Origin: a virus
Taxonomy: Duplodnaviria; Heunggongvirae; Uroviricota; Caudoviricetes
Length of the DNA stretch: 43,500 bases
IMG/VR virus record: IMGVR_UViG_2728369187_000005
Strand: one strand, 5' to 3'
A model generated the notes under the pieces. It searched no databases. It saw only the letters and a list, made by a program, of their open reading frames with translations, and was not told where the DNA came from. Shown here piece by piece: positions 3,801 to 40,714 of this stretch. The first letter of the stretch is position 1; each line of letters opens with the position of its first letter. Position numbers and translations under genes: made by a program.

Positions 3801-4283
3801 AGGTCACCCACCACCACCGATGCTAGATACTGTGAGGTGGTTTTGCCTTTAATGGTGATGTCTTTTTCCGTCACCCAGCCACCATTACGCTGTATCTGAA
3901 CCAGCAGGCGGACTTCCGACGGATTCCGGTCCCCCTTTGAGGTGNNNNNNNNNNNNNNNNNNNNNNNNNNNNNNNNNNNNNNNNNNNNNNNNNNNNNNNN
4001 NNNNNNNNNNNNNNNNNNNNNNNNNNNNNNNNNNNNNNNNNNNNNNNNNNNNNNNNNNNNNNNNNNNNNNNNNNNNNNNNNNNNNNNNNNNNNNNNNNNN
4101 TATATTGGTATTCCCCTCACTGTCCAGCACCGGCGTACTGTTCAGCAGCACGCTTTTTAATCCATCCACCGGACCTTCAACCGGCCCTTCGCTGATGGCA
4201 TCGATCACACTCAGCAGCTGCGTGGACTTCAGGTTGTCCTTCGCTTCGCGCGGGGTATGCCCCTTACTGCTGCCTTTACCCAT
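897..4283 (-). CDS. J: tail tip host-specificity protein J (reading frame interrupted by two assembly gaps)
   Basis: Three ORF segments (897-2003, 2231-4120, 3885-4283) in one orientation; N-terminus [34 protein letters not shown] and internal blocks match lambda J as recalled; total span about 1129 codons. Confidence 0.85.
2263..2332. other. assembly gap (70 N) inside J
   Basis: Run of N. Confidence 0.99.
3945..4100. other. assembly gap (156 N) inside J
   Basis: Run of N. Confidence 0.99.
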
Positions 4284-34394: not shown

Positions 34395-34817
34395 TTAATG
34401 AACAATGACAGAATCGTCGGAAGAACCGCCGCCGCTGAAATGCGCTTTCCGGTAAACGGCTTGGACTGCATCATCATGCGCATCAATTGCCGTACTTAAC
34501 GCTTCCTGCGCCGCCAGTAATGCACGGCGTTCCAGGGTATCGAAGATGCAGAGTCGGTGACGCAGCTCGCGCGGAAGGATTGCCAGAATTGCTGGGATCA
34601 GCTTCTGAATTTTTTCTCTTTGCGTTTTCGTTTCACCTTTCAACCAACGGTGATAGATATTCTGCTGATTGTTCCAGTCCTTGCCTGGAACCAGGGGCAA
34701 TTCGCCGCCCCCCTGGCGCAGATATTCTTCAGTAATTGCATTGGCTACCCATGCCTGCCCTTTTTCGGCTGCTAGGGCAAACAACACTGATTCGATGTGC
34801 TCATGCTTGATTTTCAT
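34395..34817 (-). CDS. ydaT: YdaT (toxic early protein of the RacR-repressed operon)
   Basis: 140-aa ORF downstream of ydaS, size and order as in K-12 Rac. Confidence 0.8.
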   Translation of the reverse strand: MKIKHEHIESVLFALAAEKGQAWVANAITEEYLRQGGGELPLVPGKDWNNQQNIYHRWLKGETKTQREKIQKLIPAILAILPRELRHRLCIFDTLERRALLAAQEALSTAIDAHDDAVQAVYRKAHFSGGGSSDDSVIVH

Positions 34818-34839: not shown

Positions 34840-35136
34840 TCAGGTATGATCAAATGAGGATTTGTTACTGTCATTTAGTTGCTTCACTGACATATTCTGC
34901 GAACAACATGCCGAACGTCGTAAATATGACCAGTCAATATCAGGACGAAGTTCTTCGCACAGAACCTCACCTCTTGTTGCACGTTCAATTGCTGGACATC
35001 TCTCGGCAGGCAATTGACGTACCCCTTTGATCCATTGATTTACGCTTGGAGGTGATACACCTAAAAGCCTAGCCATTGCTGATTGCCCACCGACAACAGC
35101 ACAAGCTTGCTTGAATGAATAGTTCTCTTTTTTCAT
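34840..35136 (-). CDS. ydaS: Cro-like HTH protein YdaS
   Basis: 98-aa ORF divergent from racR with HTH-like segment QSAMARLLGVSPPSVNQWIKG. Confidence 0.85.
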   Translation of the reverse strand: MKKENYSFKQACAVVGGQSAMARLLGVSPPSVNQWIKGVRQLPAERCPAIERATRGEVLCEELRPDIDWSYLRRSACCSQNMSVKQLNDSNKSSFDHT

Positions 35137-35163
35137 CGAATGAACTCCAAAAACACACAGAAA

Positions 35164-35246
35164 TATTAGGCGACGCCTAACGCAATTGTCAATAGGCTGT
35201 GCCTAATGCGGTAAGGGTAGGGATTGCCTAATGTAATGCGCATAGG
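35164..35246. promoter_or_regulatory. operator/promoter region between ydaS and racR (OR-like)
   Basis: Palindrome TTAGGCGACGCCTAA (35166-35180); 24-bp site aattgtcaataggctgtgcctaatg; extra GCCTAA half-sites; minus-strand TTGACA-18-TAATAT promoter. Confidence 0.5.
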
Positions 35247-35259
35247 AGAATATTAAGCA

Positions 35260-35736
35260 ATGCTTAGTGGTAAAGACTTAGGCCGAGCGATAGAGCAGGC
35301 CATTAACAAAAAAATCGCATCGGGATCCGTCAAATCAAAGGCGGAGGTCGCACGCCACTTCAAAGTCCAACCACCATCAATTTATGACTGGATTAAGAAA
35401 GGCTCTATAAGTAAAGATAAACTTCCAGAATTATGGCGTTTCTTTTCTGATGTTGTTGGTCCAGAGCATTGGGGGCTTAACGAATACCCCATACCAACCC
35501 CCACCAATTCAGATACAAAAAGTGAACTTTTAGATATAAACAACCTTTATCAAGCAGCCTCTGATGAAATAAGAGCGATTGTAGCTTTCCTGTTATCTGG
35601 AAATGCTACAGAACCAGATTGGGTTGACCACGATGTTCGCGCCTACATAGCAGCGATGGAAATGAAAGTGGGTAAGTATCTGAAAGCTCTAGAATCTGAA
35701 CGGAAAAGCCAGAACATCACAAAAACTGGAACTTAA
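35260..35736 (+). CDS. racR: prophage repressor RacR
   Basis: 158-aa ORF divergent from ydaS; size and position as K-12 racR. Confidence 0.85.
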   Translation: MLSGKDLGRAIEQAINKKIASGSVKSKAEVARHFKVQPPSIYDWIKKGSISKDKLPELWRFFSDVVGPEHWGLNEYPIPTPTNSDTKSELLDINNLYQAASDEIRAIVAFLLSGNATEPDWVDHDVRAYIAAMEMKVGKYLKALESERKSQNITKTGT

Positions 35737-35809
35737 ACTTATATGGTCTGACGGAAAACTCCTGGATTCCGTTATTTAACCCCCCCATCACTTTCTGCTG
35801 TCGCCATCA

Positions 35810-35877
35810 CCTATTAGGTTACGCTCAAAACATTAGGCATAGCCTATTGACAATCAATTAGGCATTACCTATAGTTC
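35810..35877 (+). promoter_or_regulatory. operator plus sigma70 promoter (PL-like) downstream of racR
   Basis: Inverted copy of the 24-bp site (cattaggcatagcctattgacaat, 23/24 identical) overlapping TTGACA (35847-35852), 17-nt spacer, TATAGT (35870-35875). Confidence 0.5.
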
Positions 35878-36044
35878 CAGCATACCACCCACCCCGCCCC
35901 ACAGAACGCCGGGCAATACTTCGAGTTACCAGGCAGTGGTAAGGGGTTAAGTAGCCAGCCCGAGGCGTATGAACATGACGGCGGGATTCAAATTTTGCAG
36001 TGCAGCAGTTAGTTCCGCCACCCGGCGTTAAGGGGAGAGATAAG

Positions 36045-36179
36045 ATGGTGCATTACGAAGTAGTTCAGTATTTGATGGATTGTTGCGGTATCACTTACAA
36101 CCAGGCTGTGCAGGCTTTACGCAGCAACGCCTGGGATCTCTGGCAGGCAGAAGTCGCTATACGTAGCAACAAGATGTGA
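36045..36179 (+). CDS. ydaG: small protein YdaG (44 aa)
   Basis: MVHYEVVQYLMDCCGITYNQAVQALRSNAWDLWQAEVAIRSNKM; below the ORF-track cutoff. Confidence 0.6.
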   Translation: MVHYEVVQYLMDCCGITYNQAVQALRSNAWDLWQAEVAIRSNKM

Positions 36180-36189
36180 GATTCGCAAA

Positions 36190-36345
36190 ATGCAAAAAAT
36201 CGACCTCGGCAACAACGAATCCCTGGTGTGCGGCGTGTTCCCCAACCAGGATGGAACGTTCACTGCCATGACGTATACCAAAAGCAAAACATTTAAAACC
36301 GAAACTGGTGCGCGCCGATGGTTGGAGAAGTACACAGTAAGCTAA
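36190..36345 (+). CDS. ydaF: small protein YdaF (51 aa)
   Basis: MQKIDLGNNESLVCGVFPNQDGTFTAMTYTKSKTFKTETGARRWLEKYTVS; convergent with sieB. Confidence 0.6.
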   Translation: MQKIDLGNNESLVCGVFPNQDGTFTAMTYTKSKTFKTETGARRWLEKYTVS

Positions 36346-36830
36346 CGATTAAAACGTCTACTCCTGCTGTTCCAGAATAACTTCATAAAATGGGAGTATT
36401 TTTCGGTGACGAGATAATAAGAACAGTTTGCGCTATCACTCTGATGTTGAATGATGCCCTTCCGTTCTAATTTTTTCATAACCGGGTTACGGCAAGGAGA
36501 AGTGATAATAAGATTTCCTGTTTTAAGGAAATCTTTAAATACAGCGATTTCTTTCTCAGATAAACGAAGCAATACTCGTTGCTCTGGTAGTAATGAATAA
36601 TGCTTTTGAATATGTGCTCGCAATCTTGAGAAGGAAATGGCGACCACGAAAGAAAAGGCAAAAACGATAATCTGAAAGAGCCAAGGTATTTCAGTATAAG
36701 CATTGAATGCGACAGTAAACTCTTTCGGTATCAGCCAGAGAGTGAGACCAAAAATGATAATCGTATACATAAGTCTTTCGAGTGGCTCGTTAGCAAAAAG
36801 TTTCAATAATGGAGTAAATACATCCAACAT
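36342..36830 (-). CDS. sieB: superinfection exclusion protein B
   Basis: ORF 36342-36953; start MLDVFTPLLKLFANEPLERLMYTIIIFGLTLWLI at 36830; membrane protein as recalled for Rac SieB. Confidence 0.8.
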   Translation of the reverse strand: MLDVFTPLLKLFANEPLERLMYTIIIFGLTLWLIPKEFTVAFNAYTEIPWLFQIIVFAFSFVVAISFSRLRAHIQKHYSLLPEQRVLLRLSEKEIAVFKDFLKTGNLIITSPCRNPVMKKLERKGIIQHQSDSANCSYYLVTEKYSHFMKLFWNSRSRRFNR

Positions 36831-37270
36831 ATCAATAACTCTCAACTGTAAGGGTATTGAAATGTTAACACAAGCTCTCGCTGTAGGGGTATAGCCGAGA
36901 CCACCGAAGCCCGGAGGTGGTGAAATAAAACCGGGCACAACACGAAGGCGCATTTCCGATATCCATAAAGAGTCGGTCTTGTCTGTTAAATTTAAATGGT
37001 GGGAGTGCGCCTCCGGTTGTAAATAACGACATTGCTGTGTGTAGTCCTGGCGGCATCAGTTTTTTCTTGAAGTTCGGCTGATGTCCGCCCTTTTTTAAGT
37101 GAATTTTGTGATGCGGTGAATGCGGCTAAGCGCACGTGGCACAGTTAAAAGTCATGTTAGTCCTTATTGGTTTGGGTGGGAAAGCCGACTGTAATTGTTA
37201 ACTGGTTGCAGTCACCTGGAGGCACCAGGCACCGCATCAACAAAGTTCATTTGTAAAAATGGAGATAATT

Positions 37271-37492
37271 ATGATTGCACATCACTTCGGAACTGATGAA
37301 ATACCACGTCAGTGTGTGACTCCTGGCGATTATGTTCTTCATGAAGGCCGGACATATATTGCCTCGGCAAACAATATTAAAAAGCGAAAACTATATATTC
37401 GTAACCTGACCACAAAAACATGCATTACTGACCGCATGATTAAAGTCTTCCTCGGTCGTGATGGTTTACCTGTAAAGGCGGAGTCATGGTGA
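37271..37492 (+). CDS. kilR: cell-division inhibitor KilR
   Basis: [32 protein letters not shown]... 73 aa, GGAG upstream of ATG. Confidence 0.8.
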
Positions 37493-37662
37493 TGACTAAG
37501 AAAATAAAATGTGCTTACCACCTTTGCAAAAAAGACGTTGAAGAAAGCAAAGCTATTGAAAGAATGCTTCACTTCATGCACGGGATTTTATCAAAAGACG
37601 AACCGAGAAAATATTGCAGTGAATCTTGTGCCGAAAAAGACCAGATGGCACATGAACTTTAA
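37486..37662 (+). CDS. ydaE: small Cys-rich protein YdaE
   Basis: ATGGTGATG start overlapping the kilR stop; [58 protein letters not shown]. Confidence 0.6.
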
Positions 37663-37736
37663 TTAATTGACTATTCGAAACTGAATTTATGCCAGAAATG
37701 GCAGGTATTCGCTCAGCCTTAATTAAGGAGAAAAAC

Positions 37737-38012
37737 ATGATTACCAATTATGAAGCCACTGTTGTAACTACCGATGACATTGTTCACGAGGTGAATCTGG
37801 AAGGAAAGCGCATTGGCTACGTAATTAAAACAGAAAATAAAGAAACCCCATTCACTGTGGTTGATATCGATGGTCCATCAGGCAACGTAAAAACACTTGA
37901 TGAAGGTGTCAAAAAAATGTGCCTGGTGCATATCGGAAAGAATCTGCCCGCAGAAAAAAAAGCCGAATTTCTGGCAACTCTAATTGCAATGAAATTAAAA
38001 GGTGAAATCTGA
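37737..38012 (+). CDS. racC: RacC
   Basis: ORF 37689-38012; start MITNYEATVVTTDDIVHEV at 37737 after AAGGAG. Confidence 0.8.
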   Translation: MITNYEATVVTTDDIVHEVNLEGKRIGYVIKTENKETPFTVVDIDGPSGNVKTLDEGVKKMCLVHIGKNLPAEKKAEFLATLIAMKLKGEI

Positions 38013-38113
38013 AAGAAATAGCCTGCGTATGGCGCAGGCTATGAACAGTGTGTATCCGGCAAGATCATTCACTGAACAAAACGAATTTTAATCTGAGTTG
38101 AGGTTAAAAAACA

Positions 38114-40714
38114 ATGAGCACAAAACCACTCTTCCTGTTACGGAAAGCGAAAAAATCATCCGGTGAACCTGACGTCGTCCTGTGGGCAAGCAACGATTTT
38201 GAATCGACCTGTGCCACTCTGGACTACCTGATCGTTAAGTCAGGTAAAAAACTGAGCAGCTATTTTAAAGCTGTTGCCACGAATTTTCCTGTCGTTAATG
38301 ACCTGCCCGCTGAAGGTGAGATCGATTTTACCTGGAGTGAACGCTATCAACTCAGCAAAGACTCCATGACATGGGAACTAAAACCGGGAGCAGCACCAGA
38401 CAACGCTCACTATCAAGGCAATACCAACGTCAACGGCGAAGACATGACTGAGATTGAGGAGAATATGCTACTCCCAATTTCTGGCCAGGAACTGCCCATT
38501 CGTTGGCTTGCTCAACACGGCAGCGAAAAACCGGTAACGCACGTTTCACGCGACGGACTCCAGGCATTACACATTGCTCGGGCTGAAGAACTACCGGCTG
38601 TTACTGCCCTGGCTGTTTCCCACAAAACCAGCCTGCTCGACCCGCTGGAAATTCGCGAACTCCACAAACTGGTTCGTGACACTGACAAAGTTTTCCCTAA
38701 TCCTGGTAATTCAAACCTGGGACTGATAACTGCTTTTTTCGAAGCATACCTGAACGCTGACTACACCGATCGAGGACTGCTGACAAAAGAGTGGATGAAG
38801 GGTAATCGTGTTTCACACATCACTCGCACGGCTTCCGGTGCTAATGCTGGCGGCGGAAACCTCACCGATCGCGGCGAAGGTTTCGTACACGATCTGACGT
38901 CACTGGCGCGCGACGTAGCCACTGGCGTACTGGCCCGTTCAATGGATCTGGACATCTATAACCTTCATCCGGCACACGCTAAACGCATTGAGGAAATTAT
39001 CGCTGAAAATAAACCGCCCTTTTCTGTTTTCCGCGACAAATTCATCACCATGCCTGGCGGGCTGGATTATTCCCGCGCCATCGTGGTTGCGTCCGTAAAA
39101 GAAGCACCAATTGGGATCGAGGTCATCCCCGCGCACGTCACTGAATATCTGAACAAAGTACTGACTGAAACCGATCATGCCAACCCTGATCCGGAAATCG
39201 TGGATATTGCCTGCGGTCGCTCCTCTGCCCCGATGCCGCAGCGAGTAACAGAAGAAGGAAAACAGGATGATGAAGAAAAACCGCAACCATCTGGAACAAC
39301 GGCAGTTGAACAGGGAGAGGCTGAAACAATGGAACCGGACGCAACTGAACATCATCAGGACACGCAGCCGCTGGATGCTCAGTCACAGGTAAATTCTATT
39401 GATGCGAAATATCAGGAACTGCGGGCAGAACTCCATGAAGCCCGGAAAAACATTCCATCAAAAGATCCTGTCGATGCCGATAAATTGCTTGCTGCATCAC
39501 GTGGTGAATTTGTTGACGGAATTAGCGACCCGAACGATCCGAAATGGGTAAAGGGGATCCAGACTCGCGATTGTGTGTACCAGAACCAGCCAGAAACGGA
39601 AAAAACCAGCCCGGATATGAATCAACCTGAGCCAGTAGTGCAACAGGAACCGGAAATAGCCTGCAATGCCTGCGGCCAGACTGGCGGGGATAACTGCCCT
39701 GACTGTGGTGCGGTGATGGGCGACGCAACATACCAGGAAACATTCGATGAAGAGAGTCAGGTTGAAGCTAAGGAAAATGATCCGGAGGAAATGGAAGGCG
39801 CTGAACATCCGCACAATGAGAATGCTGGCAGCGATCCGCATCGCGATTGCAGTGATGAAACTGGCGAAGTCGCAGATCCCGTAATCGTAGAAGACATAGA
39901 GCCAGGTATTTATTACGGAATTTCGAATGAGAATTACCACGCGGGTCCCGGTGTCAGTAAGTCTCAGCTCGATGACATTGCTGATACTCCGGCACTATAT
40001 TTGTGGCGTAAAAATGCCCCCGTTGACACCACAAAGACAAAAACGCTCGATTTAGGAACCGCTTTCCACTGCCGGGTACTTGAACCGGAAGAATTCAGTA
40101 ACCGCTTTATCGTAGCACCTGAATTTAACCGCCGTACAAACGCCGGAAAAGAAGAAGAGAAAGCGTTTCTGATGGAATGCGCAAGCACAGGAAAAACAGT
40201 TATCACTGCGGAAGAAGGCCGGAAAATTGAACTCATGTATCAAAGCGTTATGGCTTTGCCGCTGGGGCAATGGCTTGTTGAAAGCGCCGGACACGCTGAA
40301 TCATCAATTTACTGGGAAGATCCTGAAACAGGAATTTTGTGTCGGTGCCGTCCGGACAAAATTATCCCTGAATTTCACTGGATCATGGACGTGAAAACTA
40401 CGGCGGATATTCAACGATTCAAAACCGCTTATTACGACTACCGCTATCACGTTCAGGATGCATTCTACAGTGACGGTTATGAAGCACAGTTTGGAGTGCA
40501 GCCAACTTTCGTTTTTCTGGTTGCCAGCACAACTATTGAATGCGGACGTTATCCGGTTGAAATTTTCATGATGGGCGAAGAAGCAAAACTGGCAGGTCAA
40601 CAGGAATATCACCGCAATCTGCGAACCCTGTCTGACTGCCTGAATACCGATGAATGGCCAGCTATTAAGACATTATCACTGCCCCGCTGGGCTAAGGAAT
40701 ATGCAAATGACTAA
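38114..40714 (+). CDS. recE: exonuclease VIII RecE
   Basis: 866-aa ORF, same length as K-12 RecE as recalled; stop overlaps the recT start. Confidence 0.9.

Follow-up and report, generated by a model that had tools for sequence, protein, structure and literature searches.

Two inverted promoter-operator cassettes around racR: a probable OL/PL equivalent in a Rac-type prophage

Rac is among the most studied cryptic prophages, as the source of the RecET recombineering functions, of the division inhibitor KilR and of the supposed toxins YdaS and YdaT, and its repressor gene racR is essential in Escherichia coli K-12. In current models RacR regulates the racR-ydaS intergenic region only, and kil is silenced via Rho. 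This raises the question of whether the operon on the other side of racR, which carries kilR, recET, xis and int, has a promoter and RacR operators of its own. The question is examined here in a DNA stretch of 43,500 nucleotides (IMG/VR virus record IMGVR_UViG_2728369187_000005; the window), one region of which is the immunity region of a Rac-type E. coli prophage, in inverted orientation compared with the K-12 map. Positions 35100-35950 are 99.6% identical to K-12 MG1655 and 100% identical to strain EcPF14, with the genome of which the window is collinear only from about 32900 onward. Two inverted cassettes of about 45 bp bracket racR, and we consider it likely that the right copy is the equivalent of lambda OL/PL and is repressed by RacR.

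The initial annotation of the region described inverted copies of a 24-bp operator on either side of racR. The upstream string is real (the 25-mer aattgtcaataggctgtgcctaatg), but it lies at 35184-35208 and not at 35182-35207; the downstream string, cattaggcatagcctattgacaat, was correctly placed at 35831-35854. The two 24-nt arms (35185-35208 and 35831-35854) are indeed identical at 23 of 24 positions in inverted orientation, with racR between them, and they differ only in the second of the three bases at the operator centre (ACA vs ATA). When the 1.1-kb region was shuffled 300 times (first-order Markov), no inverted match over 24 nt was better than 21 of 24. The perfect palindrome TTAGGCGACGCCTAA, noted near the upstream site, is also present, at 35166-35180. 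The description of the repeat as a 24-bp operator does not hold: the 24 nt are one 15-bp operator (TTAGGC-n3-GCCTAT) with a fused -35 hexamer and flanks, not a single operator.

The unit that is truly duplicated is a promoter-operator cassette of about 45 bp, present in two inverted copies, each with two operators and both promoter hexamers (Table 1). The PR cassette CATTAGGCACAGCCTATTGACAATTGCGTTAGGCGTCGCCTAATAT and the PL cassette CATTAGGCATAGCCTATTGACAATCAATTAGGCATTACCTATAGT (minus strand 35163-35208 and plus strand 35831-35875, respectively) align over their full length of about 45 nt, with the same operator-to-hexamer register. In each, the -35 and the -10 are both joined to a 15-bp palindrome, TTAGGC-n3-GCCTAA, and the two palindromes are spaced by 25-26 bp. 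In both cassettes the end of the distal operator is the start of the -35 (GCCTAT-TGACA), and the proximal operator runs into the -10 (CCTAATAT or CCTATAGT). Centre-to-centre distances are 26 bp for OR1-OR2, 25 bp for the next pair on the left and 25 bp for OL2-OL1; OR2 is 641 bp from OL2, and OR1 is 692 bp from OL1.

Operators overlap the -35 and the -10 of two outward early promoters, OL2 and OL1 at PL and, in mirror arrangement, their counterparts at PydaS. The sequence confirms that the repeated sites overlap the -35 of these two promoters, since the TTGACA of both PydaS and PL lies within the arms, and that a near-consensus plus-strand promoter, TTGACA-17-TATAGT, is present at 35847-35875. 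Besides PL, no consensus-like plus-strand promoter was found between racR and racC, and no plus-strand intrinsic terminator was found in 35870-38200. PL is predicted to be a strong sigma-70 promoter. In a pattern scan, OR1 and OL2 came up as minus-strand terminator hairpins; both candidates were rejected, as they have stems of only 5-7 bp and poor T-tracts, and as OR1 is situated between the two hexamers of PydaS.

With at most two mismatches, TTAGGCNNNGCCTAA occurs five times in 43.5 kb, all in two clusters (35166, 35192 and 35217; 35833 and 35858), against 1.65 expected; five occurrences were reached in 3 of 100 shuffles. The window has ten exact TTAGGC/GCCTAA hexamers and 27 pentamers, and seven and nine of these, respectively, fall within the 232 bp of the two regions (binomial P ~1.5e-14), which bears out the remark that further half-sites are scattered through both. 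OL2 (TTAGGC-ATA-GCCTAT) fits the published RacR consensus fully and OL1 (TTAGGC-ATT-ACCTAT) fits it with one mismatch. A third OL site, OL3, was left doubtful: it has three mismatches and its centre is only 19 bp from that of OL2. In E. coli RM14723 and E. ruysiae the candidate is closer to the motif, with two mismatches, and no counterpart was seen outside Escherichia.

Table 1. Features of the racR region of the window, and position of the distal OL site at divergent RacR-type loci (offsets in bp, zero being where racR or the protein match ends)
Feature	Position	Strand	Description
Upstream arm, 24-nt inverted repeat	35185..35208		OR2, -35 of PydaS and flanks
Downstream arm, 24-nt inverted repeat	35831..35854		OL2, -35 of PL and flanks; cattaggcatagcctattgacaat
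PydaS (PR equivalent)	35163..35192	-	-35 TTGACA 35192-35187, 18-nt spacer, -10 TAATAT 35168-35163; 10/12 to consensus
PL-type promoter	35847..35875	+	TTGACA 35847-35852, 17-nt spacer, TATAGT 35870-35875; 11/12 to sigma-70 consensus
OR1	35166..35180		perfect palindrome TTAGGCGACGCCTAA, 0 mismatches; overlaps -10 and spacer of PydaS
OR2	35192..35206		ATAGGCTGTGCCTAA, 1 mismatch; abuts -35 of PydaS, within upstream arm
OR3	35217..35231		GTAGGGATTGCCTAA, 2 mismatches; extra site of Escherichia-type loci
OR4	35253..35267		TTAAGCAATGCTTAG, 3 mismatches, weaker; spans racR start codon; published operator with n3 over ATG (PMC9638921)
OL3, possible, weak	35814..35828		TTAGGTTACGCTCAA, 3 mismatches; doubtful
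OL2	35833..35847		TTAGGCATAGCCTAT, 1 mismatch; last base common to -35 of PL
OL1	35858..35872		TTAGGCATTACCTAT, 2 mismatches; overlaps spacer and -10 of PL
Predicted PL leader	35882..36044	+	163 nt; common to lambdoid phages of other immunities
ydaT	34395-34817	-	
ydaS	34840..35136	-	Cro-like, heads rightward (PR-type) operon; Pfam YdaS_toxin E 2.6e-31, P22_Cro E 3.4e-9; ydaS in annotation of identical genome
racR	35260..35736	+	repressor gene, 158 aa
ydaG	36045-36179	+	first ORF of leftward operon; weak UBA-like Pfam match
ydaF	36190-36345	+	second ORF of leftward operon; DUF1391, E 3e-28
Morganella, distal OL site	+64		repressor 57% identical to RacR
Mixta, distal OL site	+90		repressor 62% identical to RacR
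E. coli variant, distal OL site	+96 to +100		87% DNA identity
Proteus, distal OL site	+150		repressor 60% identical to RacR
Achromobacter MAG (metagenome-assembled genome), distal OL site	+940		75% identity over residues 1-77
Klebsiella phage KpF5, distal OL site	+1396		~76% DNA identity over 5' third of region
Pigmentiphaga, distal OL site	+1883		74% identity over residues 1-77

The OR half of this arrangement is already known. Three RacR complexes were observed on the 123-bp intergenic region, in which three repeats were noted (Krishnamurthi et al., 2017; PMC5700373). PydaS was mapped by primer extension to TTGACA/TAATAT and confirmed through -10 mutagenesis, and binding of RacR in the racR-ydaS intergenic region was demonstrated by electrophoretic mobility shift assay (EMSA) and DNase I footprint, with ATTAGGC as the monomer motif; the PydaS region was protected first, at low RacR concentration (Wisniewska et al., NAR 2022; PMC9638921). 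The operator consensus proposed in that work is (T/A)TAGGC-n3-GCCTA(T/A), and the published sites all lie between ydaS and the racR start; racR mRNA was found to be largely leaderless, and YdaS was reported not to repress racR (PMC9638921). The suggestion of the initial annotation that operator sites could be defined from these repeats was therefore already realized in 2022 on the ydaS side. The sites described here share the ATTAGGC motif and the palindromes with the published ones, and the OL register is that of PydaS. Sites or a promoter downstream of racR are mentioned neither in PMC9638921 nor in the 2019, 2023 and 2025 papers of the same group, nor in the YdaT paper (PMC11879457), PMC5700373 or the racR-silencing paper of Bindal et al. 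(2017; PMC5700377). The OL/PL half appears undescribed as far as the literature search reached: no description of a Rac OL/PL was found in the literature searched, which left out the sbcA work of the 1970s-90s, so that an earlier description is possible.

Loci encoding RacR homologues, from genomes, viral contigs and annotated phages, were scanned for the operator motif (n = 90), and two clusters of at least two sites each were found in 89 of them, isolated phages included. As near-identical E. coli prophages make up most of this set, it is the divergent loci that carry the information. The downstream copy is found 3' of RacR-type repressors in seven genera, at 64 to 1883 bp from the gene, and the two OL sites are 25 bp apart in every divergent locus of Table 1. 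Mixta, Morganella, Proteus, KpF5, Achromobacter and Pigmentiphaga share the fixed frame TTAGGCnnnGCCTAT-TGACA, five bases, TTAGGCnnn(G/A)CCTAA-TAT, which is a TTGACA-17-TAATAT promoter that points outward from the repressor gene. Among the distinct cassettes, 17 for PL and 25 for PR, there is next to no variation in the half-sites or in either promoter hexamer, while the same cassettes do vary in the n3 centres, in the stretch from the -35 to the proximal operator, in the inter-site spacers and in the flanks.

On the other side of the repressor gene, OR3 is conserved in E. coli variants and in E. ruysiae, and the site that spans the ATG (OR4) is at -7 from the ATG in all genera examined. Escherichia-type loci have four sites on the left, at -94, -68, -43 and -7 from the racR ATG, and the other genera (loci L002, L008, L009, L011 and L013) have three, at -67, -42 and -7; the -43 site (GTAGGGATTGCCTAA) resembles an insertion between OR2 and the ATG site. 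The PydaS spacer is 18 nt in E. coli, 17 nt in most other genera and 16 nt in Pigmentiphaga.

Two of the divergent repressors are domain fusions. In Pigmentiphaga daeguensis (L013 4001-4906) and in the Achromobacter MAG (L012 4001-5098), the N-terminal 77 residues of RacR, 74-75% identical, are fused to Peptidase_S24 (E 4e-15 and 1e-13, respectively), and the C-terminal domain of RacR is absent. The invariant segment SIYDWIKKG lies in the N-terminal domain common to RacR and these Burkholderiales fusions. TTAGGC-n3-GCCTAA sites are kept at both OR and OL of the fusions, beside a YdaS/P22_Cro-type gene. As a control, we used a viral contig (L102, 4950-5831) the encoded protein of which shares 55% of its residues overall with the Pigmentiphaga repressor, mostly in the closely similar S24 half, and has another N-terminal domain; no TTAGGC-type operator sites were found around it in 10.8 kb. 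The motif therefore follows the DNA-binding domain of RacR and not the oligomerization or induction domain, and a single operator system is used with two unrelated C-terminal domains. These comparisons suggest that the operator motif is specified by the DNA-binding domain of the repressor, with which it co-varies. RacR of the window has no Peptidase_S24 domain by Pfam search, in which it gave only a weak HTH_17 match, under the curated cut-off.

The position of PL relative to sequences shared with other phages was also informative. Window positions 35878-35950 match more than 2000 E. coli genomes and about 10 phages, all of which lack racR. In phages Evi, 689R5, Tritos and pPE4 the matching sequence comes after a different repressor gene, and in alignments the similarity to these phages starts within a few bases past the PL -10; the RacR-specific segment therefore ends, on this side, at PL. 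Upstream of the start of the similarity, each of these phages has its own -35/-10 and its own repeats at the same place relative to the leader, which places PL at the position of an early-left promoter.

The leader itself has several features. The stretch of approximately 165 nt from the PL -10 to the first ORF (35878-36044) recurs, at 85-98% identity, in lambdoid phages and more than 2000 E. coli genomes with unrelated repressors and operators; counterparts are found in L097 (2501-2680), L098, L099 and L101 (2501-2655). In a phage listed under Actinobacillus the leader is 76% identical, and kil comes next, without ydaF. Its start is C-rich and G-poor (17 C in the first 31 nt), and it folds somewhat better than shuffled sequences (minimum free energy z-score -2.06). 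No Rfam match was found in 35700-36400 at E up to 1, so that the conserved leader belongs to no curated RNA family; the six-sequence leader alignment contains too little variation for covariation analysis. For the early-left operon, the leader could serve in Rho loading, as a rut site, or in antitermination.

The order of genes to the right of racR is ydaG, ydaF, sieB, kilR, ydaE, racC, recE, recT, ralR, a DUF1187 gene (ydaC in K-12), xisR and intR. All genes from kilR through intR are on the plus strand, and the operon ydaG-ydaF-kilR-recET-int of the initial annotation is correct in gene order, with sieB on the opposite strand. When a foreign C protein lowers racR expression, ydaG, ydaF, kilR, ydaE, racC, ydaC and ralA are up 40- to 70-fold by RNA-seq (PMC6765115), and the recombination functions of Rac have been known since 1973 to undergo zygotic induction (cited in PMC5917428). 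The ydaS-side publications, the RNA-seq data and, for the downstream copy, the comparative evidence support the proposal, made from the repeats, of a lambda OL/OR architecture in which the repressor gene lies between two outward operator-promoter regions; at OL, RacR would be the ligand.

We propose the following mechanism. In the resting prophage, RacR dimers would sit on OL1/OL2 as they do on OR1/OR2 and would occlude both hexamers of PL, so that the genes for toxicity, recombination and excision stay off. If RacR were lost, the two outward promoters would be released together. The PL transcript is predicted to start near A35882 and to cross the 163-nt leader into ydaG, ydaF, kilR, ydaE, racC, recE, recT, ralR, xisR and intR. 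The occupancy of OL1/OL2 by RacR, the activity and start site of PL, and any cooperation between OL and OR are all presumed in this scheme.

Several points weigh against this interpretation. The RacR fragments used in EMSA and footprinting stop at +85 of racR (PMC9638921), and no published test of RacR binding downstream of racR was found in the literature searched. The RNA-seq derepression of the left-operon genes could be indirect, via YdaS, YdaT or prophage excision. In E. coli, the right half-site of OL1 is weakened (ACCTAT) and the third site is poor, so that the left operator may be weaker than OR. The 90 loci, mostly near-identical as they are, amount to independent support from about 8-10 lineages. 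At a single RacR-homologue locus, that of Klebsiella sp. R390 (L010), no OL pair was found within 4 kb; the -35 of its PR-type promoter is lost (at 3934-4008, tcaaaaataaa replaces ttgtcaat), and it is probably a decaying prophage remnant, or else has its OL beyond the fetched flank. Finally, kil silencing has been ascribed to a Rho-dependent terminator, trac, located within racR and acting on transcripts from the racR promoter, with lethal kil expression linked to failure of this terminator (PMC4150792), and this account requires no PL promoter.

Three other explanations were considered. According to the first, the downstream sites do bind protein, but chiefly as a looping anchor, which would tighten PydaS repression or tune racR autoregulation, or as targets of YdaS. 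This proposal draws on the finding that RacR is an octamer in solution by size-exclusion chromatography (PMC11014345), on the use of OL-OR looping by lambda CI, and on the repression of a PL-type promoter of prophage CP-933P by both PaaR2 and YdaS (PMC8630535). However, OL1 and OL2 overlap the -10 and the -35 in exactly the PydaS register, in which RacR represses, so that their occupancy would block PL whatever else it did. As a substitute for RacR repression of PL we find this explanation improbable; it is an addition to that repression more than an alternative.

The second explanation, which we consider quite improbable, is that the left operon is silenced mainly by Rho (with NusG), through termination of racR-promoter transcripts, and that TTGACA-17-TATAGT is a decayed or inactive relic with palindromes that have no regulatory role. 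The trac terminator and the lethality linked to its failure are in its favour, and the rut-like composition of the leader start makes Rho control of the region plausible. However, 11 of 12 promoter positions agree with the consensus, the promoter has stayed intact together with both operators in 89 of 90 loci, isolated phages among them, and a relic would not retain its half-sites while the spacers drift. Moreover, operator control and Rho control are compatible and may act in series. The trac model (PMC4150792), in which kil expression is read-through from the racR promoter, leaves the near-consensus promoter downstream of racR out of account.

The third explanation, that the similarity of the arms is the by-product of a recent duplication or gene conversion, the downstream copy being under no selection for repressor binding, would account for 23 of 24 identical positions within one genome, all the more as ATA at the OR2 centre of some Rac variants (e.g. 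L049) would make the arms identical, but it is very improbable, given that lineages with repressors of only 57-75% identity have the cassette on both sides, that conservation is confined to half-sites and promoter hexamers, and that OL1, which lies outside the 24-nt arm and has an n3 centre unlike that of OR1, is also conserved.

Repression of PL by RacR from OL1 and OL2 is thus the explanation that we retain, and a bolder version of it can be offered tentatively, as a possibility that we regard as rather doubtful. The RacR octamer would bridge OR1-OR2 and OL1-OL2 by a loop of about 0.65 kb enclosing racR, as lambda CI does across 2.4 kb, and would not be engaged by the four intergenic inverted repeats to which the group that described it assigns it (PMC11014345); transcription of kilR, recET and xis-int would in reality come from the promoter at 35847-35875, and not from racR read-through; and Rho silencing of kil would act on the C-rich leader.

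The arrangement resembles that of lambda in that related imperfect palindromes form a cluster on either side of the repressor gene and overlap the -35 and the -10 of two outward early promoters, with a Cro-type gene first on one side and kil, recombination, xis and int genes on the other. A further likeness is the presence of cargo between the repressor gene and OL, as with the DUF450 gene and terminator of KpF5; this is the position of rexAB and tIMM in lambda. Rac operators are of 15 bp with centres 25-26 bp apart, whereas those of lambda are of 17 bp with centres 23-24 bp apart; the Rac OL comprises two good sites, with at most a weak third one; and the OL-OR distance is about 0.65 kb in Rac compared with about 2.4 kb in lambda. 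Unlike the lambda repressor, RacR lacks a Peptidase_S24 self-cleavage domain, and no N gene or nut site is evident in Rac, in which boxA/boxB were not specifically searched. A leaderless repressor mRNA (for RacR, PMC9638921) and an octameric repressor (for RacR, PMC11014345) are also common to both systems.

The closest documented parallels of the Rac OL/PL are Qin and CP-933P. CP-933P of E. coli O157:H7 is a sister lambdoid prophage with ydaS-ydaT, in which the -35/-10 of PL933P equal those of its PR, with matching operators OL1-3, and PL933P was shown to be repressed by both PaaR2 and YdaS (PMC8630535). It differs from Rac in having a repressor of another family, operators that are 18-bp palindromes of the GTTTAGTAA type, and a toxin-antitoxin pair between the repressor gene and OL (PMC8630535). 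In Qin, the repressor is short and non-cleavable and falls in the Gifsy/DicA group, as RacR does (PMC3121763), and operator sets lie between dicA/dicC and dicA/dicBp, with dicBp repressed 22-fold by DicA (PMC10448788). The first gene past dicBp, ydfA, holds the position that the DUF1391 gene ydaF has in Rac, and dicB-type phages have the same conserved leader as Rac. Qin differs by its own operator sequence and immunity, and dicF and dicB replace kilR in the downstream operon of some lineages.

The concept is a textbook one, documented for lambda, Qin and CP-933P, so that the gain is incremental: the finding closes a gap for a model prophage in wide use, and phage biologists would not be surprised by it. 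If it is correct, loss of RacR would lead directly to expression of kilR, recET, xis and int, and hence to filamentation, activation of recombination and excision. It would also provide a concrete locus for sbcA mutations of the operator or promoter type, and reporter and EMSA constructs would need to include the 35800-35900 region. OL-OR looping by an oligomerization domain that is not of the CI type would become testable, as would the origin of kilR and recET transcripts.

Some additional observations concern neighbouring genes. sieB is the sole minus-strand gene within the early-left operon; its longest ORF in the window is of 203 aa (36342-36953, minus strand), compared with 162 aa (36342-36830) annotated in the identical genome, and its start codon is uncertain. 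In KpF5 (L002 3617-4950; also L010 from about 4640 onward), the repressor gene and OL are separated by a DUF450 gene and then a strong intrinsic terminator, cccgcttatgcggg followed by a T-run. A ydaS-like gene on the opposite strand, upstream of the repressor gene, is missing from the KpF5 annotation.

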